From: Dehalococcoidia bacterium
GTDB taxonomy: Bacteria > Chloroflexota > Dehalococcoidia > UBA6926
Direction: 5' to 3'
Assembly: GCA_965214725.1 (NCBI GenBank)
Contig: OZ243973.1
Location: 1,799,705 to 1,863,704, forward strand
DNA: 64,000 nt
The notes under the pieces are model-generated. The model was not told where the DNA came from and ran no database searches. It saw only the letters and a list, made by a program, of their open reading frames with translations. Position numbers and translations under genes: made by a program. Shown here in pieces: positions 6,151-25,700 of the stretch. Numbering within the stretch: the first letter of the stretch is position 1; every line of letters begins with the position of its first letter.

Positions 6151-6179
6151 TGTGGCGGATAAGGGGGAGTTGGCAGGTC

Positions 6180-6514: not shown

Positions 6515-6524
6515 GCACTATAGC

Positions 6525-6537
6525 CTGACAATGTCAG
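6525..6537. promoter_or_regulatory. Perfect palindrome CTGACA-a-TGTCAG between the -10 and the RBS, a candidate operator. A related half-site CTGACAAT lies at 6492-6499.
   Basis: Seen directly in the sequence. The position is typical of a repressor operator. Confidence 0.35.
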
Positions 6538-6567
6538 ACCGAGAACCAGTGCAAGGAGAAACGCCCA

Positions 6568-7188
6568 ATGCCTGAGGGTGACCGATTCGACAAGCTGATT
6601 CGACGCGGCTGGGACGACGTCTTGGCTGGCATTGAAAGTGACGATGCAGCGCCGTATGAGATTGCGGCCCAATTGATCGTTCCCCTGACGCGAGACGTAA
6701 AGAATGGCGGCGGATTACCGGGCCTAGACAAGGTGGGCGGCATCGTAGCCGCGTGCGTGGGATCGGGCGGGATCGAGGGCGCCTTCAGTGCGCTGGATCG
6801 CGTCGTAATCGAGCATAATGGCCATCGTCACACTGTGGTGCTAGCTCGAGCTGCAAAGACTCTTCTGCTAACTCAGGAAATAGCTGTGACACTTAGCGAG
6901 CACGCGTTTGCCACTGCCAGACTCATCGAACAGACCTGTCATGACTTGGTAGACAACGTGTTCTTCGGCGTAGGACGATACCGATTGATCGAATCGGGTA
7001 GATTCTCGAGCGAAGGGGAAGCTCGAGAATTCGAGCGCCTCGTCCACGAAGCCCTGGCGCCCGCTATTCGAGGGATGGCGGTGCAGCTTATGGTCGACTC
7101 CACAGGCAAGGCAATCAAGGTGCCCAGGTCAAGAACACCCAAGCTCAGCACGCAAGACATCCTGAAGCAAGACATCAACCCAGTCTGA
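6568..7188 (+). CDS. 206-aa hypothetical protein, first gene of the QueC-like module.
   Basis: It has an RBS (aaggagaaacgcccATG) and is followed 12 nt later by the next CDS. I recognise no motif. Confidence 0.7.
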   Translation: MPEGDRFDKLIRRGWDDVLAGIESDDAAPYEIAAQLIVPLTRDVKNGGGLPGLDKVGGIVAACVGSGGIEGAFSALDRVVIEHNGHRHTVVLARAAKTLLLTQEIAVTLSEHAFATARLIEQTCHDLVDNVFFGVGRYRLIESGRFSSEGEAREFERLVHEALAPAIRGMAVQLMVDSTGKAIKVPRSRTPKLSTQDILKQDINPV

Positions 7189-8553: not shown

Positions 8554-8576
8554 CGCCCCACCAGGAGGGACCGCCA

Positions 8577-9806
8577 ATGCAGAGAAGAAACGTGTTCAAC
8601 ACCTTGGATCCACGAATTATTGGCCGCCGTCTGCAAGAGGCGAGGAAGGCGCGCGGCCTTACCCAGGAGGAGGTTGCCACCGAACTGGGAACCGCGCGCA
8701 CGACTATAACTGCGATCGAGAAAGGAGAGCGGCGGGTTCAGCCCCAAGAACTGCTACGACTGTCTGAACTCTACGGCCACACTCTCGGGAATCTCATGAG
8801 AGAGCGAAAGCCGGCTGAGTCATTTGGAGTCCAATTGCGAGCCTTTTTCAAGGGAGTGGACTCACCAGTGGTCGCCCGTGACCTCCAAGAAGCCGTGAGC
8901 GAGTTTCAGGAGCTATGCGAGGACTATACGGCGCTCGAAGACTTGAGCGGGATTGAGCCCCGCCGAGACTACCCAATGGAACTCAGAGTGGGTCGATCAC
9001 GCCCGGAATTGGCGGCAGAGGAGGCTGCTGAGAGCGAACGCAACCGGCTCGGTCTTGGAGACGGCCCGCTCGATTCGCTGAGAGAGTTGCTTGAGAATGA
9101 TGTCGACCTGCGAATCTTCAGCATGCGAATGCCGTCACAAATTGCGGGAATGTTCGCCTACTCGGAGGAGTTGGGCGGGTGCATCGCCGTCAACAGCCGG
9201 CACCCTGAAGAGCGCCGTCGATGGTCAATGGCCCACGAATACGGGCATTTCTTGTCCGGGCGGTATCAAGCTGAGGTCAGCAATACTCTGCCTGCACGTA
9301 AGCCGCCGATGGAGAGATTCGCCGACACCTTTGCGCGCTTCTTCCTAATGCCTTCCGCCGGATTGCGTAGGCGATTCAACCAGGCCATTCGCGTCAGTGG
9401 AGGGCGCATTTCGGTTGCAGACTTGGTACGACTAGCCCACCACTACGCTGTGTCGGTGGAAGCAATGATACTGCGACTGGAGGAGCTACGGCTTATCTCC
9501 TTAGGAACGTGGCAACGACTCAAGGATCAGAGATTTAGAGTGAGGGAAGCGCAAGCGGAGCTTGGCCTCGAGCCGCTTTCTCAGCAAGGGAATGTGCTCC
9601 CTCGTCGGTACATGCTACTTGCTGTTCGGGCATTCGCTGACGGAAAGATCACCGAAGGTCAGTTGGCCCGCTACTTAAGGACGGATAGGGTGTCGGCGCG
9701 CGAAATTGCGGGGAGGCTATCTGAACAGGATAGCGTCGACGAACACGGCGATATCCAATCGTTCTCGCTAGATCTGTCATCGCCGGTGGTCATGCCCGGC
9801 CGATAA
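8577..9806 (+). CDS. XRE-family HTH regulator fused to an ImmA/IrrE-type zinc metallopeptidase.
   Basis: The N-terminus LTQEEVATELGTARTTITAIEKGERRVQPQELLRLSELYG is a Cro/C1 HTH. The HExxH motif is MAHEYGHFLSG. I place the start at the ATG at 8577 with an AGGAGG RBS; the ORF-track start at 8526 is probably upstream of the real start. Confidence 0.85.
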   Translation: MQRRNVFNTLDPRIIGRRLQEARKARGLTQEEVATELGTARTTITAIEKGERRVQPQELLRLSELYGHTLGNLMRERKPAESFGVQLRAFFKGVDSPVVARDLQEAVSEFQELCEDYTALEDLSGIEPRRDYPMELRVGRSRPELAAEEAAESERNRLGLGDGPLDSLRELLENDVDLRIFSMRMPSQIAGMFAYSEELGGCIAVNSRHPEERRRWSMAHEYGHFLSGRYQAEVSNTLPARKPPMERFADTFARFFLMPSAGLRRRFNQAIRVSGGRISVADLVRLAHHYAVSVEAMILRLEELRLISLGTWQRLKDQRFRVREAQAELGLEPLSQQGNVLPRRYMLLAVRAFADGKITEGQLARYLRTDRVSAREIAGRLSEQDSVDEHGDIQSFSLDLSSPVVMPGR

Positions 9807-9820
9807 GGGACGATGCAGAC

Positions 9821-10381
9821 ATGTTGGGCCATGCTCCTCCCACCCTCGTCGTCGACGCAAGTACACTGATCAACCTCTACGCGACCAGCCGGTTACGGGA
9901 GATCGCACTCGACTTGCCCCACACCATCTTTGTCTCGCGCTGTGTTTTGGAGAGAGAAAACCTATACGTCAGGGTTCAAGAAGCGGCTGGTACGATTTCG
10001 AATCGACACATCGAGTTGACCGCGCTAATCACTGATGGCCTTATTCAGCTTGTGGAAACGAGTGGTGAAGCGGAGGCGCAGCTCCTGATCGAACTAGCGA
10101 CTGAGTTGGGTGACGGCGAGGCGCAAACCGCAGCAATTGCCATTCATCGTGGCTACATAGTGGCCACAGACGACCGCAAGGCCAGAAGACTTCTAGCCGA
10201 GCACTGGCCGGGCGTGCGGGTTCTGACGACAACCGAAATCCTAAGAATCTGGTCCGAATCGAGCACGATAACGCCGCAAGAGCTGCGTGACGCATTCACA
10301 GCCATTCAGACAGGTGCCTGTTTCATCCCGCCGACAAACGATCCCGAGTACAACTGGTGGCAGAGCCTTATGCGAGAGTGA
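9821..10381 (+). CDS. PIN-like nuclease-fold protein, similar to DUF4411-type partners of ImmA/IrrE regulators.
   Basis: An N-terminal VVDASTLINL strand with an acidic residue and a downstream ATDD are consistent with a PIN fold. It is immediately downstream of the HTH-ImmA gene with a 14-nt gap. Confidence 0.6.
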   Translation: MLGHAPPTLVVDASTLINLYATSRLREIALDLPHTIFVSRCVLERENLYVRVQEAAGTISNRHIELTALITDGLIQLVETSGEAEAQLLIELATELGDGEAQTAAIAIHRGYIVATDDRKARRLLAEHWPGVRVLTTTEILRIWSESSTITPQELRDAFTAIQTGACFIPPTNDPEYNWWQSLMRE

Positions 10382-11040
10382 CTTCTCCCGTGGAAAGGCA
10401 TTCGGTTGTGGCCGTGCTAGAGTATGCCCAGGTTCGATACCGCAATTGAGATCAACAGCCCGGTGTAAAGCAAAGCGAGCAAGATCGGGGCCGACAATTC
10501 TAGGGGGCAGCTCTGTAACCTTGCCGTCTCCGGTGTTTATCCGTGCCCCGCGAGGTTGAGCAACCGAGATGCGTCAAATGCCGCAGGCTCGGGCGATTCC
10601 AATTCAGTTGCCATCTACAGTTGAACCAGTAAGCGTACCAGTCCGCGTCTTTTCTTCCGGCCCTGAAGGAACGGCTAGCCAAGTGGCAGGAAATCTGTAT
10701 CGACGGTTCAGGCCAAACACGCCAATACTGGAATTTGTTTGTCGATTCCAGTCCGTATCGTCTACGAGCAGGCTGCAATCAGAGCTACGCCACGCCCGGC
10801 CGGGGCCGCAAAGCGGCTTTTGGCGTATGTTTCGATTGGCCCGATCTCCTTAATGTTATTTCGCCGCTTGAATCAGTACCTGTCCAACTTGGCTAGCGCC
10901 GATGACTAGCACCATGTCGTCTAGCAGCATCATGCCCCCGAGGGGTGTGCTGCCCGATGCGGCAGCCTCAAGCACTTCTTGCCCGACATTCCAAGAAATG
11001 GTGACGGGGTGGACTTCAAAGGTCATTTCAGTGTCATCTG

Positions 11041-14000
11041 CTAGGATGGCCCCAACTTGCTTCCAGGTCTTTCAGTGGCAGGTGCCGGCTCGACGTAAGT
11101 TGCAAGAAAGTCCATCTCCAGGAGCCACCGGCGGAACGACTCGTTGTCACTGAACTGCTTGAACAACTCGGTGTGGTCGGCCAAGAGCTCGGTCATGGCC
11201 CGTCCCAAGGCCTTATCGTGCTCAATCCGTGCGTTCTGCCGGTCGGAGTTGGCCATTGCGTTCTGGTATGCCCTGTCGCCCGCTACCTTCGCGGGCAACT
11301 CCTCAGCGATCACCCTTTCGATCTTGTCCTGGTCCTTCCACTCGATGTTGCCAAACCGGTCATTGAACTCCCTGACGATATTCGAGAGTCGGTCCATCTC
11401 CGGTTCCGGCTTTTGTCCTCCGCCCTCGGTGGGGACGGGTTCGATCTCTGCGTCCTCGTCGGGTAGCTGGATGTCCTGCACAGCCTGCTTCTCAACCCGG
11501 TAGCTGTCCATGTCTATGGTTCCAAGAATCCCCTTGGAGAAGTCGTCCTCTACAGGAGCGGGCAGCTTGGGAACGAGGAAGGTCAGGAAGATGGAGAGCT
11601 TCTCCCATTCCGCGTAGGTGTAGGGCAGGATGGCCGCCAAGAACCCGTAGGACCGCAGGAACGCCTTCGCCTTGCCCTTGAAGTCCACCTGGCCGTCTTC
11701 GTCCAACTGCTCTCGGTAGACCGAGACGCAAGCGTCCAGGATAGGATCGAGCCGGTCGCGATCGTCTCCGGAAAGGTATCGCTCCACGAGCTTGTCAATC
11801 TGAGCCGGGCCGTAGACCTGATACCCGTCCAGAGCTGCCTTGAGGTCGTGAAGCCTGTCGGGGTCGGTCTCCTCCGCCAGAATCGTGGTCCGGTAGTAGG
11901 GGGTGAAGCCGGCCTGGATCGTGTCGGCGTCATTGGCGAAGTCCAGCACGAAGGCGTCGTGTTTCTTGGGATGCGCCCGGTTGAGACGGGAGAGCGTCTG
12001 CACTGCCTTCACTCCTGACAGCGGTTTGTCGACGTACATCGTGTGCAGCAGAGGTTCGTCGTAGCCGGTCTGGAACTTGTCGGCGCAGACCAAGAAGCGG
12101 TACGGGTCCTCCTGAATCTTGTCGGTGATCAGGTTGGACGAGAAACCGTTGAGGGACGCCTCGGTGACATGCGCGCCGCCGTACTCGTGCTCGCCGGAGA
12201 AGGCGGCGATGGCTTGGTAGGGACTCTTGCGTTCAGCCAGGTAGTCCCGGATTGCATAGAAGTAGGTGATGGCCCGCTGGACGCTGCTCGTCACCACCAT
12301 GGCCCGTGCCTGCCCGCCTATCTTCTGCAGGCCGGCCACTTGTTCGTGGAAATGGTCGACCATGATTTCTGCCTTCAGCCGAATGGCATGGTCGTTGTCC
12401 TCCACGTATCGGCGCAGCTTCTTGCCTGCTCGCTTAGTGTCGAATTCTGGGTCCCCCTCAACTGTCTTCACCAGTCGGTAGTAGCTGTTCACCGGCGCAT
12501 AGTCCTTCAGTACGTCGATGATGAACCGCTCTTGGATGGCCTGCTTCATTGTGTAGGAGTGGAATGGCGCGTGCCTCGTATTCCCGCCTTCCGAAACGGG
12601 CGTGCCGAATATCTCCAGGGTCTTGTTCTTGGGTGTGGCGGTGAAGGCGAAATAGCTGGCGTTGGCAAGGAGCTTCCGGGACTCCATCAGCCGATTGATC
12701 TTGTCCTCGGTGGTCTCGTCTTCCTCTTCGGCGCCCGCTTCTCCCAACGCCATGGACACCGACGCCGACGTCCGCCCTCCCTGACTCGAATGTGCCTCAT
12801 CAATGATGATGGCGAACTTGCGCCCGCGGTGCTCATTGCCTATGGCGTCCAGGATGAAGGGAAACTTCTGGACGGTGGTGATAACGATCCGCTTGCCTTC
12901 TTGGAGCAACCGCCGCAGGTTGCCGGAGGTTTCGGCATGGCCCACGATGGAGCCGACTTGGGCGAACTGCCTGATGGTGTCCCGTATCTGCCTGTCCAGC
13001 ACCTTGCGGTCCGTGACGACGACGGTGGTGTCGAACACTGCTGCGTCATCCCGCTCCAGCCCTATCAGCTGGTGGGCTAGCCATGCAATGGAATTGGACT
13101 TGCCGCTGCCCGCCGAGTGCTGGATCAGGTACTTGGAACCGGCTCCCTTAACAGACGCGTCAGCCAGTAGCTTCCGCACTACGTCCAGCTGGTGGTAGCG
13201 GGGCCATACTTGCTCCCGCCTCTTTCGGCCCGTCTTGTCGTCCTTGCCCTCCACGATCTGGGCATAGTTCTCGATGATGTCGGTCAGCCCATTGCGGGTG
13301 AGGACCTGCTTCCACAGGTAATCGGTCTTGAGGCCATTGGGGTTGGGCGGGTTGCCCGCGCCGTCATCCCATCCCTTGTTGAAGGGCAGGAACCAAGATG
13401 CCTTGCCACTGAGTTGCGTGCAGAACTGCACTTCGTGGTCGTCAACGGCAAAATGGGCGAGACATCTGCCCAGCTCGAAGAGCTTCTCCCGGGGATTGCG
13501 GTCTCGCTTATACTGTTCTACGGCGTCATCTACCGTCTGCTTGGTCAGGCTGTTCTTCAGCTCGAACGTTGCGACGGGCAGGCCGTTGATGAACAAGCAC
13601 AGGTCTAGGGCAAGCTGCGCGTTGTCGTTGCTGTACCGGAGCTGCTTGGTCACGCTAAAGCGGTTCTGCCCGTACAGGACGCCGGCTTTCTCATTCCCTG
13701 GCGACGGTGTGCCGTACATGAGGTTGATCTGGTGTGGGCCGTGCTTGATGCCGTTGCGGAGCACGTCAATGGTACCGCGACGGGTTATCTCTCCCTGCAG
13801 GCGGGCCAGGAATCTGCGCCTTGATGGGCTGTCCGTGCCCAAGTCCAGCGATTCGGCTGCTTTAAGTTGAGTATCGTGGAGGAAGTCCGAGAGTTGAGCG
13901 AGGTCCACGCAGTACTCCCTGTCGTAGTCTTGGGCGTCGCCGCTTATCCACCCTGCGCCATAGCTGGACGGCCGCTCGCGCACCACCCCGCCCTGCGGCG

Positions 14001-14073
14001 GGCCCCACTCAGCGCCCGTCAGAGCCTCGCAGATAAGGCTCTCCAGTCCCTTCTCGGTGGTATCGGTTGCCAC
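11041..14073 (-). CDS. hsdR: Type I restriction enzyme R subunit.
   Basis: 1010 aa. Walker A is QHSAGSGKS and the DEAH box is IIDEAHSS. The helicase motifs follow. Confidence 0.92.
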   Translation of the reverse strand: MATDTTEKGLESLICEALTGAEWGPPQGGVVRERPSSYGAGWISGDAQDYDREYCVDLAQLSDFLHDTQLKAAESLDLGTDSPSRRRFLARLQGEITRRGTIDVLRNGIKHGPHQINLMYGTPSPGNEKAGVLYGQNRFSVTKQLRYSNDNAQLALDLCLFINGLPVATFELKNSLTKQTVDDAVEQYKRDRNPREKLFELGRCLAHFAVDDHEVQFCTQLSGKASWFLPFNKGWDDGAGNPPNPNGLKTDYLWKQVLTRNGLTDIIENYAQIVEGKDDKTGRKRREQVWPRYHQLDVVRKLLADASVKGAGSKYLIQHSAGSGKSNSIAWLAHQLIGLERDDAAVFDTTVVVTDRKVLDRQIRDTIRQFAQVGSIVGHAETSGNLRRLLQEGKRIVITTVQKFPFILDAIGNEHRGRKFAIIIDEAHSSQGGRTSASVSMALGEAGAEEEDETTEDKINRLMESRKLLANASYFAFTATPKNKTLEIFGTPVSEGGNTRHAPFHSYTMKQAIQERFIIDVLKDYAPVNSYYRLVKTVEGDPEFDTKRAGKKLRRYVEDNDHAIRLKAEIMVDHFHEQVAGLQKIGGQARAMVVTSSVQRAITYFYAIRDYLAERKSPYQAIAAFSGEHEYGGAHVTEASLNGFSSNLITDKIQEDPYRFLVCADKFQTGYDEPLLHTMYVDKPLSGVKAVQTLSRLNRAHPKKHDAFVLDFANDADTIQAGFTPYYRTTILAEETDPDRLHDLKAALDGYQVYGPAQIDKLVERYLSGDDRDRLDPILDACVSVYREQLDEDGQVDFKGKAKAFLRSYGFLAAILPYTYAEWEKLSIFLTFLVPKLPAPVEDDFSKGILGTIDMDSYRVEKQAVQDIQLPDEDAEIEPVPTEGGGQKPEPEMDRLSNIVREFNDRFGNIEWKDQDKIERVIAEELPAKVAGDRAYQNAMANSDRQNARIEHDKALGRAMTELLADHTELFKQFSDNESFRRWLLEMDFLATYVEPAPATERPGSKLGPS

Positions 14074-14087
14074 GCTATGCTCGCCTC

Positions 14088-15524
14088 TCAGCCGTTCACT
14101 TCGGACGGTTGACCGTCCTCATTGTCCAGCACTGGGCCATCCTCGTCTATCGGACCCTCCTCGTCGTCCTCATCCGGCAGCTGCTCCGCCGCCGCCCGCA
14201 CGTCCAACTTGCCCGTCACCACATCCGCGATGAGCCGGGTGCGGTACTCCTCTACCAACTCCACCTGCCGCCGCGCCCGTTGGACGACCGCATCGATCCT
14301 CGCCGTCTCCCGTTCCAGATGCTCAACGATGGCGCGCTGCTCCGGGAGCTGTGGGAGAGGGAGTGGCATGTTGGCATATTTCTCTCCGTTCACGTTCTCA
14401 ATGGTCGATGAGATTGCCATCACACGCAGGAAGGCGTTGAATGCCTCCGCCTTTGTAAAGAAGAAGAGATACTTAGGGAGAATTGCCGCGCTCGGGACGA
14501 AGCGCACTAGATATCCTGCGTAGGCGCACGGTCCATGCAAGCCAGCTGCGTAAAGGAAGCTGCGCCCGACCGTTCCGCTCCGGGATAGCAAGATGTCACC
14601 ATCGCTTAGACCATATCCCTCTGCTAGCTCTGGCGGGAGAAACACGCCCTTACCAAGAAGTCTGCCATCTTCAGCAATGTCCGTGGTCCGTACGAAGCGA
14701 ATGCCCACCGCTTGATACTGAGTGGCAGCAACATTTGCCCCGTAGAGTGCGGACTCGGAGCAGACTTGCTTGAGCCGCCGCACGTCCCAATGCTCCGGCA
14801 CGTCGCCCAGCCACTCTACGCCGGAGGGTTTGAGGCGGACGTTGGGGTCGAGGCCACGGGTAACGGCTCGGTTGACGACGACCTGCTTCTCTTCCTCAAG
14901 CAGTCTGATCAGTTTCCGCTTAGCGCCAACGTACCGCCGGACGCGCCGGTCCACGTAGTCAAGGTAGCGGACGATGGCGCGCTGCTCGGGGAGGGGAGGG
15001 AGGGGCAACGACAGATACTTTAGCTGGCCACTGTAGATGTGCATAATGGTGATGCCGCGCCCCATTAGAGATTTCTGCGTCTGCGTGGCGGGGCAGTCCA
15101 GCGCGTAGCCTGCAAACTTGGGTTCAATTGGAATTGTTGGCCGAAATATGATCAAGTCTCCGCCGCAGACAATCTGAGCGTGCATCAAGTTCACGGCGGA
15201 CTTACCGATCTCTTCAATTGTCTCTCCTGAATTAGGAAAGAGAACGTCACCCCTAGTGATTGGGGTATAGGCGCTGGCCTTCTCGGGTGAGACGAAACTC
15301 CGTGTCTGGTTTATGAAGAACTTGTGAGTAGTGTAGAGGTCTCCATACCGGACACAAGGTATCCCGTCGAGGACCTCGTCATCCTTCGTTCCGCCTGTGC
15401 CTTTGGAGAAGACACCAACCCTTCCAAGCTGGACAATTTCCCAATGCTCAGGCACATCGCCGAGCCACTCGACGCTTGAGGGCTTGTAGGCGAGGTAGGG
15501 GTGGGGCTCAACTGACCGGGCCAT
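14088..15524 (-). CDS. hsdS: Type I RM specificity subunit.
   Basis: Two target-recognition domains, each preceded by the conserved repeat PSGVEWLGDVPEHW, and central and C-terminal LPPLPEQRAIV coiled-coil repeats. I place the start at the internal Met (MARSVEPH...) to reduce overlap with the upstream ORF. The ORF track gives 15602. Confidence 0.88.
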   Translation of the reverse strand: MARSVEPHPYLAYKPSSVEWLGDVPEHWEIVQLGRVGVFSKGTGGTKDDEVLDGIPCVRYGDLYTTHKFFINQTRSFVSPEKASAYTPITRGDVLFPNSGETIEEIGKSAVNLMHAQIVCGGDLIIFRPTIPIEPKFAGYALDCPATQTQKSLMGRGITIMHIYSGQLKYLSLPLPPLPEQRAIVRYLDYVDRRVRRYVGAKRKLIRLLEEEKQVVVNRAVTRGLDPNVRLKPSGVEWLGDVPEHWDVRRLKQVCSESALYGANVAATQYQAVGIRFVRTTDIAEDGRLLGKGVFLPPELAEGYGLSDGDILLSRSGTVGRSFLYAAGLHGPCAYAGYLVRFVPSAAILPKYLFFFTKAEAFNAFLRVMAISSTIENVNGEKYANMPLPLPQLPEQRAIVEHLERETARIDAVVQRARRQVELVEEYRTRLIADVVTGKLDVRAAAEQLPDEDDEEGPIDEDGPVLDNEDGQPSEVNG

Positions 15525-15930
15525 ACTGCCAACCTCGCTTGTTGGCGAATTCTGCAAGCCGCTTCGCAGTATTCCTGACACTATGCTTGGCCAGATCCCC
15601 AAAGATGATTATGCAGTGTTGAGGAAATGGATCAGGATCACTTTTCACGCTCAACTGTTGCTCTCCGCATTCCAACACGCTGACCGCCATCACGCCCATA
15701 GACCCGTAGTTAAGGCGATCCACGTAGTGATCCCATGCATCCCTGGCCGTAATCTGGTCACCGTCGTACACCGAGAGACTTTGACGGTCTTTAGGGGTAG
15801 GAGTGAACGCCTGGGATGTAACGCGCCCATCCTGAGCAAAGTTAGGATGAATCTGGCGAAGCAGAAGTGTCTGGCTATTCACGTCACCTTGCTCTGCAAC
15901 AAGTGCAGCTCGCTGCCAAGCCATGCCCAA
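15508..15930 (-). CDS. Hypothetical 140-aa protein (gene C), embedded between hsdM and hsdS.
   Basis: An intact ORF on the same strand. It overlaps the end of gene B and the start of hsdS, which suggests translational coupling. I recognise no motif. Confidence 0.55.
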   Translation of the reverse strand: MGMAWQRAALVAEQGDVNSQTLLLRQIHPNFAQDGRVTSQAFTPTPKDRQSLSVYDGDQITARDAWDHYVDRLNYGSMGVMAVSVLECGEQQLSVKSDPDPFPQHCIIIFGDLAKHSVRNTAKRLAEFANKRGWQYGPVS

Positions 15931-16679
15931 TCTTGCGGGCTCTCCAATGCCAAGTCTCGTTCATAGGATTCATTTGAGCCCAAATCGAGACAATGCCATT
16001 CGCCGGAATGGGTCTCGAGATCGATCTCTAAACTAGGCCGATATGGGCCGATGTCCCACTCAAATTGCACGGCGCCCTCTGGGGTGGGATAAACAAAAGG
16101 AACAGGCGCTCCAAAAAACCATTTGGAAACAGCATCTTGAAGCCAAGCCAAGCCCTCGGGGCTAGGGGCTTTACCGTAGCCCTCGCCCCACTCGCTCGCA
16201 GGCTGCATACCGCCCGCCCAACCATCCTCCAAATTCTTGAATCCTTGGAGCCGAGCTAGAATGCCCAAGAGGTCGTCAGACATTGGGGTGTAGGGCCATA
16301 GTGCGATATCAACTGCCAAGGAGGATAACTCTCCTGGAGTCCCGCTGCTATGATCGTAATCGCTGACTATTCCAAACTGGACTGGATCGGCGCCATAGGA
16401 ACTGGGCCAATACAACCGACGTGCTGCCCGTGGCAACTGCCCAAACTTGGGGGGCAGCTTATGGAATACCATGTGCCCTCTCAACGCAAACGGAATACGC
16501 CCAGCGATCCGTGATGAGCTCTCGCCGTACCCAATTCTTGCACCAAGCGAACTGGTAAACGGTGGTCCTTCTTCGCCGACAGCCCAAGGATATCTTTGTG
16601 CAATTTCTGAAGGTGAATCAATTCCCTGTCGCAGACGGTCTGTGCTCGCCCGGGACGTATCCACTGTTGCGCGAGTCAC
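15879..16679 (-). CDS. Hypothetical 266-aa protein (gene B), embedded in the type I RM operon.
   Basis: It is ATGA-coupled to gene A (16676-16679). It is Trp- and Gly-rich with no recognisable motif. Confidence 0.6.
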   Translation of the reverse strand: MTRATVDTSRASTDRLRQGIDSPSEIAQRYPWAVGEEGPPFTSSLGARIGYGESSSRIAGRIPFALRGHMVFHKLPPKFGQLPRAARRLYWPSSYGADPVQFGIVSDYDHSSGTPGELSSLAVDIALWPYTPMSDDLLGILARLQGFKNLEDGWAGGMQPASEWGEGYGKAPSPEGLAWLQDAVSKWFFGAPVPFVYPTPEGAVQFEWDIGPYRPSLEIDLETHSGEWHCLDLGSNESYERDLALESPQDWAWLGSELHLLQSKVT

Positions 16680-17344
16680 CGTGCCCCTCCGTCTAATCGC
16701 GCGACTATATCGTGCGCTTGGTCCCAGACAGATTCTAAGGATTGACGAACACTTCCAGCATCCGGCAATGTGTGTTCCTCCTTATGCAAATTCAGGCTCA
16801 TGAAGACTCGATCCCCATTCGGGTCATTGAAGCGTGGCTCCAGCTGAATGGTCCAGCGGCCCATTGGCGAGTCAAAGTATAGTTGCCCCATTGCCCCTAC
16901 CACGGACCAATTGGCTGGCACAAACTCGCTCTTGCCAAACAGTCTAGCCCCCAAATACTTGAGCGAAGGTGCCTCCGAAATCTGACCGAAAACCACCTCT
17001 ATATTGTAGCCGTACGCGCGGAGCGCGCGCTGTTGCGCGCCAGCCGTTTCGCTGGCCTTTTCGAGCACTTGGCCCAAGTATCGCAAGTCACTGCGTGATG
17101 GGAATTCTCGCTCGATGACCGTCCGATCCGGCAACATCTTCACGCTGATTCGTTCACGCTGCATCTCTGAACCACTCGGCAGTTCCTTCTTGCCTACGGG
17201 CACTCCAACTGTCAGGCCTACGTCATCCAGAAGCACATCGCTACCGACTCTCTCCGAGAAAGCGGAGACAGATTCGAGGTCTCGGAGTAATCCTAGCCCG
17301 ACTAGGACTACGTTTGCCTTCAATACATCGCTGACACTAGCCAC
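16676..17344 (-). CDS. Hypothetical 222-aa protein (gene A), embedded in the type I RM operon.
   Basis: It starts 170 nt downstream of hsdM on the same strand. I recognise no motif. Confidence 0.6.
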   Translation of the reverse strand: MASVSDVLKANVVLVGLGLLRDLESVSAFSERVGSDVLLDDVGLTVGVPVGKKELPSGSEMQRERISVKMLPDRTVIEREFPSRSDLRYLGQVLEKASETAGAQQRALRAYGYNIEVVFGQISEAPSLKYLGARLFGKSEFVPANWSVVGAMGQLYFDSPMGRWTIQLEPRFNDPNGDRVFMSLNLHKEEHTLPDAGSVRQSLESVWDQAHDIVARLDGGAR

Positions 17345-17514
17345 GTAGTTTTCCCTTGCTCATCCCGCTCAGTATGCCACTATGCCATAGGCTCCAAAGT
17401 ACTGTCGACGGGAAATCTGTGGCCAAGCCGCATGGAACCACGATGCCCCGTGCGCGAGGCCGGACCGATTGGAGACACCGCATGGGCCCCAACATCCCGA
17501 TTGCAGTCAAACAA

Positions 17515-19677
17515 TTACCCCACTCCCACAATCTCGCTCAGCAGCCCCTCCGTCTCCTGCTCCAACGCCAAGATGTCGGCCCGTATCTCCTCCAGCGGGC
17601 GCAGGGGCTGAGGCTTGTAGAAATGGCGGGTGAAGCTAATCTCGTAGCCCACCTTTGCACTGCTAGGCGTGTGCCAAGCATCTGGTGCGTAGGGCAGTAC
17701 CTCGCGACGGAGGAATGCCTCAATGCCGCCATCCTCGGTGAGCGGTACCTGCTCCGTATCGCGCAGGTCAGTGTCCGGTTCGTACTCAACGACGGTGGGC
17801 TTGCCCTTGACGGTGACGGAGAACAGACCACGCAGCGGGTCGGCCTCTATTCCCTTGTGGATCTTCTTGATAACCGGCGGCGCATCTTCTAATCGCTCGC
17901 CATCGTCCTTAAGCCGCTTGATTTCCTTAGCGGTGTAAGCCCGTTCCGGGTCGATTCCCCCTAGCCTCAGGGGCCTCTCCACAGTGACCTTCCAGTAGCC
18001 GAAGGCCTCGTTGGGGAATATCTTCGATTCCTCCATCTCCTCAAAGGCGAGGAAGGTGTCGCAGATGCGCCGGATGTCCTCATCGGACAACTCGCAGTTC
18101 TTGCTGCCAAGGTTCTTGCGCAGGGGTTTGAACCACTGGGTGGCGTCAATGAGCTGTACCTTGCCCCGGCGGTGCGCCGCCTTGCGGTTGCTGAGCACCC
18201 AGATGTAGGTGGCGATGCCGGTGTTGTAGAACATGTTGAGGGGCAAAGCGACGATGGCCTCCAGCCAGTCGTTCTCGATAATCCAGCGACGGATGTTGCT
18301 CTCCCCCTGCCCGGCGTCACCGGTGAAGAGAGAACTGCCGTTGTGGACCTCGGCGATGCGGCTGCCCATCGGCGTGTCCTGCTTCATCTTGCTCAGCATG
18401 TTCGCCAGGAACATCATCTGGCCGTCGCTGGACCGTGTGATCAGCGAGAAGTCGGGGTCGCTGCTGTGTTCCACGAGGAAGCGCGGGTCCTTGATGCCGG
18501 ACTTGCCACCCATGCGCTCCAGGTCGGTCTTCCAGCTCTTCCCGTAGGGTGGATTGGAGAGCATGAAGTCGAACTCTCGAGCGGGGAAGGCATCGGCAGA
18601 GAGGGTAGAACCGAACTGCGTGTTGTCGGCCTCGACGCCCTCGCCCTTCAAGATGAGGTCGGCCTTGCTGATGGCGTAGGTCTCGGGGTTCACCTCCTGG
18701 CCATATAGGTGAACGGACACCTCCTTGTCTTGCTCCTCAGCCAACTGTGTGAGCGTCTCCTCCGCGACCGTTAGCATCCCACCCGTGCCGCAAGCCCCGT
18801 CATAGACGAGGTACGTGCCGGACCTGACCTCATCGGCGACGGGTAGGAAGATGAGGCGTGACATGAGCTGCACCACGTCCCTTGGGGTGAAGTGCTCTCC
18901 GGCCTCCTCGTTATTCTCCTCGTTGAAGCGCCGGATGAGCTCCTCGAAGACCGTGCCCATGCTGTGGTTGTCCAGGCCCTCCAAGCGCACTGAACCGTCA
19001 GCGTTCAGGACGGGCTTGGGGCTGAGGTTGATTGAGGCATCAAGGAATTTCTCGATCAGGAAACCCAGCGCGTCCGCCTCCACTAACGTTGGAATCTGGT
19101 TGCGGAATTTGAACTTGTCCAGCACTTCTTGGATGTTGGGAGAGAATCCGTCGAGATATGCCTCGAAGTCGGCCCGCAAGCGTTGTGACTGGCCACGGGA
19201 TGTAAGATCGCGGAGTCTGAAGGGTGACGTGTTGTAGAAGGCCTCGCCGGATGCTTGGCGCAATGCTTGGTCTTGGTTAGTGATGCCGGCGGCGTCCAAC
19301 CGCTCTTTGGCGGCACGCACCTCGTCCTTGGTCGGTTCGAGCACGGCGTCCAGACGGCGGATCACCGTCATGGGCAGGATGACGTCACGGTACTTGCCCC
19401 GGACGTACACGTCCCGCAGCACATCGTCCGCAATGCCCCAAATGAAGCTGCTGATGTTGAGGGTGGTCATTGCTAGATGGGTTCCCTGTATGTGCTTCAG
19501 TTGATGGCGGGACCGTAGATGAGGTCCCACCTCCCCATTGTAACGATCAGAGATTGGGACGAACAACAATTCCCCGGCTAATCCCGAGCAGAGCAAGGAG
19601 TACATCTCTTCACGTTGCGAGTTCCAAAACAAAAAATGCCCACATACATGGCCAGACAGGTGGGAAGATGCAGTCAC
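17515..19677 (-). CDS. hsdM: Type I RM DNA methyltransferase M subunit (N6-adenine).
   Basis: 720 aa. Motif IV is LSNPPYG and motif I is VYDGACGTGGML. Confidence 0.92.
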   Translation of the reverse strand: MTASSHLSGHVCGHFLFWNSQREEMYSLLCSGLAGELLFVPISDRYNGEVGPHLRSRHQLKHIQGTHLAMTTLNISSFIWGIADDVLRDVYVRGKYRDVILPMTVIRRLDAVLEPTKDEVRAAKERLDAAGITNQDQALRQASGEAFYNTSPFRLRDLTSRGQSQRLRADFEAYLDGFSPNIQEVLDKFKFRNQIPTLVEADALGFLIEKFLDASINLSPKPVLNADGSVRLEGLDNHSMGTVFEELIRRFNEENNEEAGEHFTPRDVVQLMSRLIFLPVADEVRSGTYLVYDGACGTGGMLTVAEETLTQLAEEQDKEVSVHLYGQEVNPETYAISKADLILKGEGVEADNTQFGSTLSADAFPAREFDFMLSNPPYGKSWKTDLERMGGKSGIKDPRFLVEHSSDPDFSLITRSSDGQMMFLANMLSKMKQDTPMGSRIAEVHNGSSLFTGDAGQGESNIRRWIIENDWLEAIVALPLNMFYNTGIATYIWVLSNRKAAHRRGKVQLIDATQWFKPLRKNLGSKNCELSDEDIRRICDTFLAFEEMEESKIFPNEAFGYWKVTVERPLRLGGIDPERAYTAKEIKRLKDDGERLEDAPPVIKKIHKGIEADPLRGLFSVTVKGKPTVVEYEPDTDLRDTEQVPLTEDGGIEAFLRREVLPYAPDAWHTPSSAKVGYEISFTRHFYKPQPLRPLEEIRADILALEQETEGLLSEIVGVG

Positions 19678-19731: not shown

Positions 19732-20274
19732 CTACGCCGGTACTGCCACCTTCTCTTCCGAATGCCCGTTCTCCATTGCCACTGCCCATTCGAAGAGGGA
19801 GATGGACGGTTGGAGTTTGTGGGAGCGGCTCTTCTTCTTGTGGGCCGTCTCGGTCATGAACTCCGCCCAGGAGAAGAGCGCGCGTTGTGGCTCGTCAGTC
19901 GTGGGCTCCGCGCTGGTGGCGACCCGAAGAGAGCGCTTGGCTTCCTCCGTGGGCTGGATCTCCACGATGACGGGTGCAATCGGCTCGGTCACCTGCCATT
20001 CGTCGTCCACCAAGTAGGATTCAGACTCAGTCTCGGCGGTGCGGGCTTGGGCGAAGACAGCTTCGACGGTGTCCGCCGCGTCGTCATCGTCAGCGCCGTT
20101 GACGAGCTTGCGGGCGAGGGCCAGCATGAGGTCATCGCCATCGTCGCCGTAGGCGGCGAGGCCGTCCTCGGGGAGTTCGCCCTCAACCGCCAGCGACGAT
20201 TGGAGTTTCTTGGCGACCAGTTTGAGTGCGTCGGCTTGCAGGGTATTCCGGTAGGCCATGAAGATGACCTTCAC
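19732..20274 (-). CDS. Hypothetical acidic 180-aa protein between vapC and hsdM.
   Basis: It directly follows the vapC stop and lies 55 nt upstream of hsdM on the same strand. It has Asp/Glu-rich tracts. Confidence 0.45.
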   Translation of the reverse strand: MKVIFMAYRNTLQADALKLVAKKLQSSLAVEGELPEDGLAAYGDDGDDLMLALARKLVNGADDDDAADTVEAVFAQARTAETESESYLVDDEWQVTEPIAPVIVEIQPTEEAKRSLRVATSAEPTTDEPQRALFSWAEFMTETAHKKKSRSHKLQPSISLFEWAVAMENGHSEEKVAVPA

Positions 20275-20732
20275 GGGCCGGGTCTGGCCGATGCGCCCTC
20301 GTCAAACTCTCCAATCCACCGAACGTTGCCCCCGATCGTTTCCGCCGCTCGGAGGAATTTCTTGTCGGCAGTCCAGAGTTCGCAGTCCAAGGTCTCCGAC
20401 AGAGCAAGGTAGTGGGCGTCGTAAACAGCTCCTTGTTGGAGAACGCTTGCGAGCGTCAATGCCCTGGCGTGAAGCTCCGGGAATTCGTGAAGTTCGACTC
20501 CGACGGCCATCAGATCTTGGAGGAGACGTGTCGCCATTCCAACGCTGAGGTGCCCTCTCAATACGCGCTGGTGGAGCACGTTGGCAACCTCCGTGGGCAT
20601 CAGGTAGGGAGCCGCAAGCCGCGTTCCCTCACTGTCCAAGCGCCGCACCAAGGCAGTGGCCTTGTCAGAGTGCTCCTCTTCGATTAGCCACTTGACCGCC
20701 AAGCTGGCATCCACGACAGCGGAGCCGTTCAC
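20271..20732 (-). CDS. vapC: PIN-domain toxin VapC.
   Basis: The N-terminus AVVDASLAVKWLIEEEHS is the PIN strand-1 with an acidic residue. It has an ATGA overlap with the upstream antitoxin. Confidence 0.8.
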   Translation of the reverse strand: MNGSAVVDASLAVKWLIEEEHSDKATALVRRLDSEGTRLAAPYLMPTEVANVLHQRVLRGHLSVGMATRLLQDLMAVGVELHEFPELHARALTLASVLQQGAVYDAHYLALSETLDCELWTADKKFLRAAETIGGNVRWIGEFDEGASARPGP

Positions 20733-21022
20733 AGCGTATTCTTCGTCTCTCGCGCCTCCCGAAGCAGCTCAACCGAGTCTTCGGGCAGGGGCTGACCGCC
20801 GAAGAGTTCGCCTCGATGGCCCACGAGCCGCTCGAATGCCTCACGATTGAAGTGTTGCTCTGGAATGCCGTCAACTGCGTCCCTGGCCAACTCCTTGTTT
20901 ATGGCCGTTTGGCAGTACTGGCGCATGGTGACCCCTTTGAGCGCTGCAACGACCTTCAAGCGTCGCTGTACAGAAGCGTCTATATCCAGCGTGAGCCTCT
21001 TCCTCTCGGCGTCCATATACAC
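20729..21022 (-). CDS. vapB: Ribbon-helix-helix antitoxin (VapB/CopG-like).
   Basis: RLTLDIDASVQRRLKVVAALKGVTMRQY is the RHH signature. An AAGGAG RBS precedes it. Confidence 0.75.
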   Translation of the reverse strand: MYMDAERKRLTLDIDASVQRRLKVVAALKGVTMRQYCQTAINKELARDAVDGIPEQHFNREAFERLVGHRGELFGGQPLPEDSVELLREARETKNTL

Positions 21023-21294: not shown

Positions 21295-21328
21295 GCCCTC
21301 TACCAATCTAGTGACGGTGGGGGAAACG

Positions 21329-22774
21329 ATGCGGGTTGCCTGTGTGCTCATTACGCATCTGAGGGCAAAGATCGAGATGCGGCGACGGCCGGATGTGGCA
21401 AACCGCCCCGCCGTGATCGTCGCGCGTGGACAGAAGAAGCCCGTTGTTGTCGACCACTCGCCCGCCACCTCTCGTATCAGAATCGGTATGACGCCGGAAC
21501 AGGCACTCTCGCAGCAGGCAGATACGCTGATGCTTGAGGCGGATGAGTCGACATATCGCAGCGTGTTTCGGCAGACGCTCACCGCTCTGCAAGAGGTCAG
21601 TGACCAGGTTGAGGACGCAGAGCTCGGGACGGCCTACGTGCGGGTGGCTGGGTTGGACGAGATGCACGGCGGCGCGGAGGCCCTTGTTGCCGCGCTGCAT
21701 GGCGCGATTCCGCGCTATCTGCAGGCGCGGATTGGCATCGGCGAGGGAAAGTTTGCCGCTTTCGCTGCGGCCGTTGCAAGCCCACCACTCGGCGTTGCGA
21801 CCGTTCCGCCGAATGCAGCTGAGTTCCTATCCCCGCGTTCCATTGATCTTCTGCCGATAAAGCAAGAAATGCGCCTCGCTCTCCGCCGTTTCGGACTCCG
21901 CACCCTGGGTGATGCGGCGGCGCTGTCTGAAGCCACGCTCATAGACCAGTTCGGCGCGGACGGGAGCGCGGCGTGGCGGCTCTCGCACGGCATCGACGAC
22001 AGCCCTCTCATTCCGCTCGCCTACGAGGAATCTATCTCGGAGCGCATGTCACTGCCGTTCGCGTCAAGCTCCCTGCAGCTTGTCACCATCACCGTGGACA
22101 CCCTCCTTAAACGCGCGTACGCCATGCCGCGAATGCGTGGCCGCTACGCCGGCGCCGTCACAATCCATTGCCTGCTGCTCAACGCGCCCGCGTGGGAGCG
22201 AACCTTGAGATTCAAGCGACCCGCCGGTTCATGGGAGCGTGCATCTGAGATTATCGCACCACAGATGGAGCAGGACCATCCGCTCGCGCCTGTCGAGGAA
22301 ATCAGCGTGACATTGAGCGAATTGAGCGGTGACGCAGGGATGCAGATGGGCCTATTGCGTAATCAACGCCGCGACCGGCACGAGCGGCTGCTGGAGGCAG
22401 ACAGGGGACTCCGCGCCCATCTCAAAGGGCGCAGCGCTCTCTACCAGGTCTTGGATGTCGCGCCGTGGCATCCCGCGCCGGAGATGCGCGCCCTCCGCGT
22501 CCCCATTGATGCCTCCACAGGCGATGACGCGACACCGCTGGCGCTGCCGACAGCGTTGGCCGTCCAAGAAGGTCCCAGCCGTCAGCCGTTGGCTGTGCAA
22601 CTCGGCAAGAAATGGCACAAGATCGCGCAGATCGAGGATTGGTGGAGCTTCGATCTCTGGTGGCTGCCACAGCCGCTTACGCGGACCTATTACCGTGTGA
22701 GTCGAGAGGACGGTCCGGAGCTCATCCTCTTCAGAGACCGGCATGACGATTGCTGGTATCAGCATGTGCCCTGA
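21329..22774 (+). CDS. imuB: ImuB-like Y-family polymerase paralog, the mutasome accessory subunit.
   Basis: It has a UmuC/DinB-like fold (ACVLITHL...VIVA...VVVDHSPATSRIRIGMT) but no obvious catalytic acidic triad. It directly precedes dnaE2. The start is at 21329, an ATG with a GGTGGGGGA RBS. The ORF-track start at 21311 is a GTG. Confidence 0.75.
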   Translation: MRVACVLITHLRAKIEMRRRPDVANRPAVIVARGQKKPVVVDHSPATSRIRIGMTPEQALSQQADTLMLEADESTYRSVFRQTLTALQEVSDQVEDAELGTAYVRVAGLDEMHGGAEALVAALHGAIPRYLQARIGIGEGKFAAFAAAVASPPLGVATVPPNAAEFLSPRSIDLLPIKQEMRLALRRFGLRTLGDAAALSEATLIDQFGADGSAAWRLSHGIDDSPLIPLAYEESISERMSLPFASSSLQLVTITVDTLLKRAYAMPRMRGRYAGAVTIHCLLLNAPAWERTLRFKRPAGSWERASEIIAPQMEQDHPLAPVEEISVTLSELSGDAGMQMGLLRNQRRDRHERLLEADRGLRAHLKGRSALYQVLDVAPWHPAPEMRALRVPIDASTGDDATPLALPTALAVQEGPSRQPLAVQLGKKWHKIAQIEDWWSFDLWWLPQPLTRTYYRVSREDGPELILFRDRHDDCWYQHVP

Positions 22775-22777
22775 GGT

Positions 22778-25700
22778 ATGGATGGCACAATGACGTCCCC
22801 ATATGTTGAGTTGCACGCCAAGAGCTTCTACTCCTTCGGAGAGGGAGCGTCCCACGTCCATGAATTGCTGGCGCAGGCAAAGGAATACGGCTATGAGGCG
22901 CTCGCCCTGACGGACACGAACCTGTGCGGCGCGCTGGAATTCGCACGGCTGGCCAAGAGCCTCGGTATCAAGCCGATTACGGGCGGCGAATTGACCATGC
23001 TGGACGGCTCCCGCATCACTCTGCTGGCCAAGAGCAGACAGGGCTACGCCAACATCTCACGCCTGTTTACGCTCGCCAACTCCATCGACCGCCGAGAGCC
23101 GCGCCTTGACCCGATCCATCTGCCCGACCATGCGGAAGGCGTCGTGCTCATCACGGGTGGGCGTGACGGCCAACTCTCCCGCCTTGCAATGAGCGGCCGG
23201 CATGACGACGCTCAAAGACTCCTGCGTGACTACATGGGCTGGTTTGGGCCGGACTCTGTATTTGTGGAGTTGCAGCAGAATCATATTCGCGGAGACACGG
23301 GGCGGAATCGTGAACTTGCCCGCCTGGCCAGGGACGCAGGCGTCGGCCTCGTTCCCACCAATGATGTCCACTATCATGCGCCGGAGCGGTACCAGCTCCA
23401 GCACGCGCTCGTCGCCGCCAAGCACAACGCCACTATCGATCAGGCACTCCCGCACATCCGCCCCAATCATCACTTCCACCTAAAGCCCGCTGAGGCGATG
23501 GCACGGCTCTTTGAGGGGGAATACCCGGGGATCATCGATGCTACACGCCGCATCGCAGAGCAATGCGATTTCAATCTGGCTGACAGCATCAACTACGAGC
23601 TGCCGGAGCCGGATGTGCCGACGGGCTACACAACGGATAGCTACCTGCAACGACTCTGTTTTGAGGCGGCATTGCGCCGATATGGCGGCATCTCGGAACG
23701 CGTCCGTGAACGACTTGATGAGGAGTTCAGACTCGTCAAGCGGCACGGTATTGCCGGATTCCTTCTGCTGTATCGGGATATCGTACTTTTGGCACAGCAG
23801 ATCATGGAGGAGCGCGGGCTGGCACCGCCCGAGATCCCGTTGGAAGAGAGGCCGCCAGGCAGGGGACGTGGGTCATCCGTCGCGCTGTTGGTCGGTTACC
23901 TCATCGGCATCAGCCACATCGACCCGATCAAGTGGGATCTGACGCTGGAGCGGTTCATCTCCGAGGACATGTCCATGCTACCGGACATTGACCTTGATTT
24001 TCCGCGCGGACTTCGGGATGAGCTCATCAGCCGCATTCACCAACGGTACGGCCCGGACTATGCGGCACTGACGGGCGCGATCAGCACCTACTCCGTCAAG
24101 GGCATCATCCAAGACATCGGTAAGGCGCTTGGCCTCCCCAAAGAGGACCTCACGCTCCTCTCCAAGCAGCTTCACTCCCACCACGCGGTTGACCTCAAAG
24201 AGGAGATGCTGCGCCTGCCCGCATACAAGGACCGTGTTGAGTCGCAAGGTTGGCGTGAATTGCTTGAACTTGCACCACATCTCATGGACGCCCCCCGCAG
24301 CCTTGGCCAGCACGTCGGCGGCATGATCCTCAGCAGCTCGCCCATCTCGGAGATGGCACCCATCCGTGAGGGGGCGATCGCAGGGCGCTACATTATCGAC
24401 TGGAACAAGGACACCATCGCCGATGCCAACGTGGCCAAGATTGATCTGCTTTCTTTGCCGGTACTGGACCAGCTGGAACAGTCACTCGATCTCATCGAAC
24501 AGCGGACAGGCAGTCGCCCCGACCTCAGCCGTGTGGAGCCGGACGACGACAACGTCTACGACATGATCAACGAGGGGCGTGCTAAGGGTGTCTTCCTGCT
24601 GCAATCACCGGCCCAGCTCAAGATGGCGCAACGACTCCGCTCCCGGAACCTACTTGATCTCGCATACCAGGTCGCCCTTATCCGCCCCAGTGTGGGTGTG
24701 CAGGGGAGTTCCGTCAGCCAATTCGTGGAACGCTATCGGCATGGCGTGGAGTGGGACTACGACCACCCATTAGAAAGGCGTGCTTTGGAGCGTGGCTACG
24801 GCATCATCATCTGGCAGGAGCAGGTGGTACAGCTGCTGTCAGATGTTGCGGGGGTGACAACGGCAGAAGCGGACGAGATACGCCGCGCCTTTGGTCGCCC
24901 CAATAACGCCGCCCTGCTTGAAATGCACCGGCAGCGATTCTTGGAGGGCGCTCAGCAAAACGGCGTGCCCGATGAAACGGCTCACAAGATCTTCGGCAAG
25001 GTCAACGGCCACTACATGTTCCCTGAGAGCCACAGCCATGCCTTCGCCATCACTGCCTACCAAGCCGCTTGGCTCAAATACTATTATCCGATGGAGTTCT
25101 TTGTGACCCTCATCAACAACCAGCCGATGGGTTTCTACCCGATGGAGACGCTCAAACAGGACGCGCGGCACTGCGGCGTCCCGTTCCTCAATCCTTGCGT
25201 CAATAGGAGTCAGGCGCTGTGCGTGCCGGAAGATGGTGCAGTGCGTCTTGGACTCGGCCTCGTTAGGGATGTTGGCGAGGCGGCGGCGCGAGCCATCGTG
25301 GAAGAACGAGAGGCGCGGGGCAGATATGGCAGCCCCGCCGACCTCGTGAGCCGAACAGGAATCACGCCCGGGGCTGCGACGTCACTCGTCATGGCGGGCG
25401 CGTTTGATGATCTTGCGCCCAACCGCAGGCAATCCCTGTGGGACGTTGGCCTTGCCAATCGCCCACTCAGGAGCGGTCAACGTACTCTCCCCACGTCTAA
25501 TGACCACGCCACACCTCAGTTCAAGGACTTCTCGGACTACGAGAAGATGGTGAGTGAGTATCGCGTCATGGGCACCTACCCGCGCGGCCACGTCATGGAA
25601 TTCGTACGCCCCACCCTGAGCGACCGTGTTCTGCGCACGTCCGAGGTGTACGGCATGCCTGAAAACCGAGAGGTGATTGTTGCCGGTTGGCCGATTGCAC

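Follow-up and report, generated by a model that had tools for sequence, protein, structure and literature searches.

The stretch of DNA considered here, 64,000 nucleotides from a Dehalococcoidia bacterium (assembly GCA_965214725.1, contig OZ243973.1, positions 1,799,705 to 1,863,704; hereafter the window), carries on its minus strand a type I restriction-modification (RM) operon in which three small genes, A, B and C, are lodged between hsdM and hsdS. By their profile matches, B and C are a variant of the phage defence candidate PDC-M32, and C is predicted to adopt the fold of the ADP-ribosyltransferase (ART) superfamily. The locus had previously been interpreted from its letters and open reading frames (ORFs), without database searches. 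This sequence-only reading placed three unknown genes within an RM operon without sizeable gaps. The RM genes it named all carry the corresponding Pfam domains (Table 1), and the hsdM-hsdS-hsdR operon around the cassette is apparently intact. Orthologues of hsdM at two related loci, L097 and L098, encode 655 aa, and hsdS contains an internal 64-nt direct repeat typical of HsdS proteins with two target recognition domains. The three proteins are not split pieces of HsdS or HsdM, an outcome that the reading had listed as refuting its finding: a Pfam search at E<=1 matched none of them to Methylase_S, HsdM_N or N6_Mtase.

All three ORFs are present as read and have conserved homologues with matching N-termini, which identifies them as genes and not chance ORFs. 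C most likely begins at GTG 15882 and would encode 124 aa, not the 140 aa of its longest ORF, since this length equals that of an identical database entry (P0001) and this start agrees with the 'MNxxTLLLRQ' N-terminus of its homologues. The A/B and B/C junctions are each 4-nt overlaps reading GTGA in the raw sequence, where ATGA had been reported for A/B, and the probable ATG of hsdS (15524) lies within the 3' end of C, giving an overlap of 17 nt. Upstream of the cassette, 170 nt separate the stop of hsdM (17515) from the start of A (17344). A promoter-like site (TCGACA-18-CATAGT with an upstream TG) lies in this gap; a promoter and terminator scan of the cassette region gave counts not above shuffled-sequence expectation. 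GC content is lower in the cassette (0.53-0.56) than in hsdM and hsdR (0.59-0.62). No transposon-like direct or inverted repeats were found flanking the cassette, the sole notable repeat being the one internal to hsdS.

B and C are best identified through the PADLOC models. Residues 18-137 of C (numbered on the 140-aa ORF) match positions 2-121 of the 123-position PDC-M32B model (PDLC04579; E 6.3e-50), while residues 138-260 of B match positions 257-370 of the 376-position PDC-M32A model (E 9.3e-25). For comparison, a canonical partner of 374 aa, at locus L012, matches PDC-M32A over positions 4-372 (E 5.5e-151). Judged by these profiles, the B-C core is a partial member of PDC-M32 with a variant architecture. 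The likeness extends to the order of the genes, their tight overlap and their frequent location inside type I RM operons. PDC-M32 is a two-gene cassette with the A-component upstream on the same strand, an arrangement into which B and C fit, whereas gene A falls outside the PADLOC definition. Canonical PDC-M32A proteins are ~375 aa long and possess a conserved 250-aa N-terminal domain that is absent from B of the window, where a non-conserved extension of ~135 aa and the separate upstream 222-aa protein A take its place. The description of the cassette as novel consequently needs dividing: the C-terminal domain of B and the whole of C belong to a catalogued candidate, and A matches no PADLOC model.

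PDC-M32 belongs to a set of 145 phage defence candidates predicted by 'guilt-by-embedding', which entered PADLOC as predictions; it was not individually discussed and no mechanism was proposed for it (Payne et al. 2024, bioRxiv 10.1101/2024.01.29.577857). Its components are annotated as hypothetical only, and the literature holds a single other mention, in a list from a Sinorhizobium prophage. Pfam and NCBIfam scans of A, B and C gave no informative match, and Pfam found no domains in 33 canonical PDC-M32A proteins. PHROGs returned two families, both of function unknown, and PDB sequence profile searches with the A, B and C families and a broadened A family returned only noise. The C family is broad and sparse: 763 clusters of proteins of ~125 aa were found in many phyla, with relatives in 253 of ~185,000 species genomes (one genome per species). 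Curated phage genomes yielded no match to C, and curated plasmids yielded four, all annotated as hypothetical.

The partner gene is the constant companion of C, though not in constant form. Loci from other genomes were numbered L001-L081 (80 genome loci and L081) and all their ORFs were searched with hidden Markov models (HMMs) of the A, B and C families. In 80 of these 81 loci a B-family domain is encoded immediately before C, mostly with a 4-nt overlap. This is the usual antitoxin-toxin gene order. Small, adjacent, co-directional and overlapping, with the putative neutraliser first, the two genes resemble a type II toxin-antitoxin pair. Across the loci, the constant part of B is limited to its C-terminal ~130 aa, and what precedes it distinguishes three architectures. 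Fifty loci have a long B of ~375 aa, the canonical PDC-M32A with its 250-aa N-terminal domain; 21 consist solely of C and a short B of 130-175 aa, which is the constant domain by itself; and five have a B of intermediate length (270-305 aa) preceded by A. Four more mid-length B ORFs lack A and have probably been over-extended or truncated, and further three-gene copies occur at L082, L097 and L098. The existence of the short architecture indicates that the B domain and C form a sufficient core.

Among seven B proteins of the three-gene type, the N-terminal ~135 residues vary in both sequence and length, except for the motif 'QG.DSP..I..RY.F' within the first ~35 residues. In an AlphaFold2 model of B, the predicted local distance difference test (pLDDT) score is below 50 over residues 1-9, 14-17 and 32-135 and at best 50-55 elsewhere in the first ~30, and on this model the extension is probably disordered. 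The C-terminal domain is an alpha/beta domain, and B shows an indirect fold resemblance to immunity and chaperone proteins.

The 15 close homologues of protein A are 218-233 aa long. A profile search recovered 391 clusters (50% identity), of which 199 have E<1e-30, and nearly all are single-domain proteins of 210-230 aa. A has no sequence match in Pfam, NCBIfam, PHROGs, PADLOC or the PDB, and a Pfam scan of 52 family members found no domains. Sequence comparison led to rejection of the possibility that A is the N-terminal domain of PDC-M32A split off as a separate gene, with hhalign probabilities of 0.5% and 0.2%. A occurs exclusively with mid-length B, both at its five loci among L001-L081 and at L082, L097, L098 and in the window. 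The neighbourhoods of eight more distant family members were also sampled, five of which had enough sequence to be judged; in the remaining three, two contigs end just inside the next gene and one ends with A. In all five judgeable contexts A heads a tight three-gene cassette, in which A (220-226 aa) is followed by a middle gene of 223-359 aa and a small third gene of 117-147 aa, often beside integrase, AlpA or ParA genes. The third gene at L084 (~142 aa) had not been called and was recognised only in a translation of the DNA that follows the middle gene. HMMs of B and C do not match the second and third genes of these distant cassettes. With hhalign, some reach no better than E 0.0005-0.05 against B or C, and the motifs 'L[LI]R..', 'AF', 'LSV', 'P.H..I.F' and 'NWDSYGA' are common to both sets. 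Homology of these genes to B and C is accordingly best treated as a hypothesis suggested by profile alignment. A metagenome scan with the A alignment returned only two loci.

The fold predicted for C resembles several ART toxins and effectors, with comparison scores given in brackets: Tse2 (7.3), AvrPphF ORF2 (6.4), RES toxins (5.2, 3.9, 3.9), the Rhs toxins TreX (5.1) and TreTu (4.8), and DarT (4.9, 4.6, 4.0). Further resemblances include OspC3, CopC, LT, PT, Tne2, CARDS, NarE, Scabin, SidE, DT, C3 and MbcT. A Foldseek search of C against the PDB gave nothing significant, the best match being AvrPphF ORF2 (E 0.28), so that the resemblance is a remote one. Taken together, the modelled structure makes an ART-superfamily fold for C quite probable.

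Conservation within the C family is pronounced. Among 201 sequences, R9, S37, S61, G63, C72 and H89 are invariant, and Q10, Q24, Y39, H52 and E71 nearly so. Position 88 is a glutamate in 185 sequences, with alanine in eight, glutamine in four, serine in three and glycine in one; the window copy has glutamine. R9 lies on strand 6-11, S37 on strand 35-40, and E88 immediately before strand 89-93. On a tentative assignment of the ART strands, E88 falls where one would expect the catalytic glutamate of beta5. C lacks the ART motifs H-Y-E, R-S-E or R-E-S on beta1/beta2/beta5, from which its invariant set (R, S, S, G, C, H) differs. These residues set C apart from canonical H-Y-E and R-S-E enzymes and would make its active site a non-canonical one. 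If E88 is catalytic, the window copy with Q88 may have altered or reduced activity.

The position between hsdM and hsdS, a known site of cargo according to the sequence-only reading, is indeed a recurrent home of this module. That reading proposed a search of other genomes for homologues embedded there, and such homologues were found. Loci were searched with HsdM, HsdS and HsdR of the window, and 59 had at least 3 kb of sequence on both sides. At 18 of these 59 well-flanked loci, hsdM precedes the module and hsdS follows it on the same strand; at seven, one of the two genes is near; and at 34, neither is. In L012, L036, L045 and L048 the fit is especially tight, with B overlapping the stop of hsdM and hsdS overlapping the stop of C, by 4 nt each. 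In most embedded loci, HsdM is strongly similar to that of the window (E 0 to ~1e-97), and the commonest flanking Pfam families are N6_Mtase/HsdM_N upstream and Methylase_S downstream. Other neighbours of B-C include GmrSD, ThsB-TIR, AAA_21/AAA_15 and MmeI-type genes, as well as many housekeeping genes.

The three-gene variant is particularly RM-associated. An hsdM gene or hsdM remnant lies directly or just upstream in five of ten three-gene copies (the window and nine loci). The window and L098 share an intact hsdM followed by A-B-C-hsdS-hsdR; L097 has hsdM upstream, separated from A by a pair of genes, and BREX genes downstream; and in L073 and L001 a 3' remnant of hsdM lies directly upstream of A. 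L081 differs in belonging to another defence island, whose genes are of the TIR, PLD-helicase and Eco57I-type methyltransferase kinds. L098, which is syntenic with the window and shares 72-74% DNA identity with it, carries a 1.09-kb insert between hsdM and A (a 160-aa gene and a ThsB-like TIR gene), at a position corresponding to a 114-nt stretch of the window (17411-17524) that lacks it. In both L097 and L098, DNA similarity to the window picks up again at 17410, which lies 66 nt ahead of A. The extra cassette of L098 and this boundary indicate that the slot gains and loses cassettes and that A-B-C travels with its own leader.

In each of the three closest three-gene loci (L098 5858-6901, L097 4097-5140 and L081 6857-7901), the inserted pair sits immediately before A. 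It encodes a 160-aa protein without an assigned function and a 185-aa ThsB-like TIR protein (PADLOC ThsB 7e-11, PDC-M50B 1e-10). At L073, from Limisphaerales (8223-11627), the RM operon is decaying, with hsdM reduced to its last ~50 codons and hsdS broken into three frames, while hsdR and A-B-C are intact. The cassette can thus outlive the methyltransferase genes.

Several other genes border the operon in the window (Table 1). The 'orf180' listed as an operon gene upstream of hsdM does not stand as a gene of its own. Its product aligns at 74% identity with residues 587-764 of a helicase-like protein of 764 aa (ResIII/Helicase_C), whose gene is intact upstream of hsdM in the syntenic L098, and by this alignment it is the 3' remnant of a helicase-like gene of that size. 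A VapBC-like pair occupies the position where the first 586 codons would fall. The vapC assignment is upheld by the PIN domain of its product (153 aa, E 1e-7); the 97-aa partner encoded upstream has no Pfam match. On the opposite strand, a 450-aa protein matches PADLOC QatC (E 9e-48) and, weakly, Pfam QueC, and the ORFs near it (206, 216 and 597 aa) match no Qat component and no other Pfam or PADLOC model, so this region may be an atypical or partial Qat-like locus. Convergent with hsdR is a pair consisting of a gene for an HTH_3 and Peptidase_M78 (ImmA/IrrE-type) protein, with PADLOC matches to RmrA (E 5e-27) and CapP (E 9e-20), and, 15 nt after it, an ORF of 186 aa whose sole match, to PDC-S70, is weak; this pair could regulate neighbouring defence genes. 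Beyond vapBC lies a gene for an ImuB-like Y-family polymerase (IMS domain, E 1.7e-11), and after it comes an ORF of 1053 aa whose translation, judged by eye, resembles a DnaE2-type polymerase. The two would make up an error-prone mutasome cassette immediately next to the defence island.

Table 1. Features of the A-B-C cassette, the surrounding type I RM operon and neighbouring genes (positions in the window; nt, nucleotides; aa, amino acids).
Feature	Position	Strand	Length and start	Assignment
Gene A	16676..17344	-	222 aa, GTG start	First gene of three-gene cassette; accessory protein
Gene B	15879..16679	-	266 aa, GTG start	
B N-terminal part	16275..16679	-	residues 1-135	Poorly conserved extension, probably disordered
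B C-terminal domain	15879..16274	-	residues ~136-266	Conserved PDC-M32A C-terminal domain; putative C-binding/neutralising domain
Gene C	15508..15882	-	124 aa	Compact; predicted ART-superfamily fold; putative toxin/effector; equivalent to PDC-M32B
Gene C, longest ORF	15508-15930	-	140 aa	
hsdM-A intergenic region	17345..17514	-	170 nt	Proximal 66 nt (17345-17410) form conserved cassette leader
Promoter-like site	17408-17379			In hsdM-A gap
hsdM	17515..19470	-	likely start M70 of ORF reaching 19677	HsdM_N 6.6e-23, N6_Mtase 7.4e-56 (Pfam)
hsdS	14088..15524	-	478 aa from ATG 15524 (ORF to 15602)	Methylase_S 3.3e-21, two stretches (Pfam)
hsdR	11041..14073	-	1010 aa	HSDR_N, SWI2_SNF2, ResIII, T1R_D3-like (Pfam)
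'orf180'	19732-20274	-		Remnant of helicase-like gene
VapBC-like pair	20271-21022	-	153 aa and 97 aa	PIN-domain protein and upstream partner
ORFs near QatC-like gene	3799-7188		206, 216 and 597 aa	
QatC-like gene	7201-8553	+	450 aa	QatC (PADLOC)
HTH_3/Peptidase_M78 gene and 186-aa ORF	8526-10381	+		ImmA/IrrE-type protein; ORF with weak PDC-S70 match
ImuB-like gene and 1053-aa ORF	21311-25939	+		Y-family polymerase; DnaE2-like ORF

The interpretation favoured here, with somewhat better than even confidence, is that the cassette is a three-gene form of PDC-M32, borne as self-contained cargo between hsdM and hsdS and combining a toxin-immunity pair with an accessory module. A toxin-immunity pair is the simplest model for the core, which the short architecture indicates to be sufficient. 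In this scheme C would be the effector, on its modelled fold most likely an NAD+-dependent toxin acting on a protein or nucleic-acid target, which the C-terminal domain of B would bind and silence in the manner of an antitoxin or immunity protein. A and the N-terminal extension of B would together serve as a regulatory input, replacing the fused 250-aa domain of canonical PDC-M32A. By analogy with DarTG and CmdTAC, a phage cue that perturbs A or the B extension may release C; free C would then modify an essential target with NAD+ and stop growth, so that growth arrest or abortive infection backs up restriction once a phage evades the RM system. We infer each of these functional elements, namely the toxicity of C, its use of NAD+, its neutralisation by B, contact between A and B, and the anti-phage role.

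Known systems offer partial precedents. The ART toxin/immunity pairs TreTu-TriTu (Rhs), Tse2-Tsi2 (type VI secretion system), AvrPphF ORF2-ORF1, DarT-DarG and RES-Xre have no sequence similarity to B-C, and the cassette differs from them in having no secretion-system context. B is not a macrodomain protein like DarG, nor a helix-turn-helix (HTH) protein like Xre, and it is encoded upstream of C, whereas most immunity genes of polymorphic toxins lie downstream. Like the cassette, PrrC and RloC occupy a cargo position between hsd genes, and they are thought to back up restriction; they consist, however, of an ABC-type ATPase and a nuclease domain, neither of which was found in A, B or C by Pfam or PADLOC, whereas the cassette has its own partner protein and is mostly not RM-embedded. 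In CmdTAC and HigBAC, an antitoxin with an unstructured extension is accompanied by a third protein whose proposed roles are control of antitoxin stability and phage sensing, the toxin of CmdTAC being an ART (PMC11618068; bioRxiv 10.1101/2024.02.24.581848). The cassette resembles these systems in its three genes and extended antitoxin-like partner, and a functional analogy is speculative. The third component of toxin-antitoxin-chaperone (TAC) systems is SecB-like, whereas A-family profiles match neither SecB nor any other PDB entry at E<=10 and have no Pfam match. The extension of B is N-terminal, in contrast to the C-terminal ChAD of TAC antitoxins, and the order A-B-C places the third component first, unlike in CmdTAC and HigBAC.

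A number of observations count against a toxin-immunity defence module. The defence role of PDC-M32 itself is a prediction from gene neighbourhoods, and no sequence match in Pfam, NCBIfam or the PDB backs an enzymatic assignment. A canonical ART catalytic triad is not evident in the C alignment, E88 being replaced in 16 of 201 sequences while C72 and H89 are invariant instead. B appears to lack a DNA-binding domain of the antitoxin type, as no HTH, RHH or AbrB domain was matched in B or A by Pfam at E<=1, and the role given to A in the cassette is purely conjectural. One alternative is that C is neither enzyme nor toxin, its ART-like fold being a relic used for binding, for instance of nucleic acid or a phage protein, with B-C(-A) acting as a non-lethal regulator or adaptor. 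This is very unlikely, given that six residues are invariant across sequences from many phyla and that five of these are polar (R9, S37, S61, C72, H89); such a set of invariant and nearly invariant polar residues is typical of an active site and not of a binding surface. A dedicated, tightly linked partner is, moreover, usual for dangerous effectors.

Two other explanations accept a toxic C and differ over what it serves. C may guard the RM complex in the manner of PrrC, being silenced by, or sensing, HsdM, HsdS or HsdR until a phage anti-restriction protein frees it, with A and B as RM adaptors. The tight and recurrent embedding (18 of 59 loci, with 4-nt overlaps at both ends in several of them), the presence in these operons of an HsdM strongly similar to that of the window, and the RM linkage of the three-gene variant (the window, L098, L097, L073 and L001) all agree with such a role. 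It is nonetheless distinctly unlikely, as the 34 well-flanked loci with neither hsdM nor hsdS nearby, among them the L081 island, and the plasmid copies among unrelated genes indicate that the module works, or at least persists, without RM. PrrC has no equivalent of the universally linked partner B, none of the three proteins is similar to PrrC or RloC, and B-C likely carries its own neutraliser, so that the RM complex is arguably not needed for silencing. The pair may instead be a selfish addiction or stabilisation module without a phage role, for which the slot is merely a permissive hotspot and A an unrelated hitch-hiker. Gene order and overlaps like those of toxin-antitoxin systems fit this explanation, as do the patchy spread over many phyla in so few species genomes, copies standing alone between housekeeping genes or on plasmids, and the other swappable cassettes of the slot. 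It too is unlikely. The strict tie of A to one B architecture, with a 4-nt overlap, indicates that A is no random hitch-hiker, and all five judgeable other contexts show it at the head of a three-gene cassette of its own; the enrichment of the module inside or beside defence genes is also far above what random integration would produce. Many toxin-antitoxin systems that behave in this way prove to be defensive, DarTG and CmdTAC among them.

A more far-reaching proposal is doubtful at present. The A family would constitute a widespread, unrecognised class of three-gene systems, each with A, a B-like partner and a small C-like effector of ART fold, to which PDC-M32 is a two-gene sister. A would act as a new kind of phage sensor or stability factor gating a non-canonical effector, with an active site of arginine, serine, cysteine and histidine and with new chemistry, and RM-embedded copies would couple release of the toxin to failure of restriction. 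Apart from this proposal, the suggested fold-based mechanism, the picture of three architectures, protein A with its wider three-gene family and the evidence of cassette swapping in the slot appear to be new.

For PDC-M32, the analysis now offers a testable mechanism centred on a minimal effector with a predicted ART fold and unusual invariant residues. The system can be pictured as a constant 130-aa partner domain served by three interchangeable inputs, namely none, a fused 250-aa domain or the separate protein A. The window represents the rarest of these architectures, housed within an apparently intact type I RM operon whose syntenic relative shows cassette swapping. It is for these reasons a good model for how RM operons collect back-up systems, for crosstalk between an embedded copy and its RM host, and for the role of A. 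If C is truly catalytic, it would represent a new clade, possibly with new chemistry, among the ART toxins of bacterial immunity.

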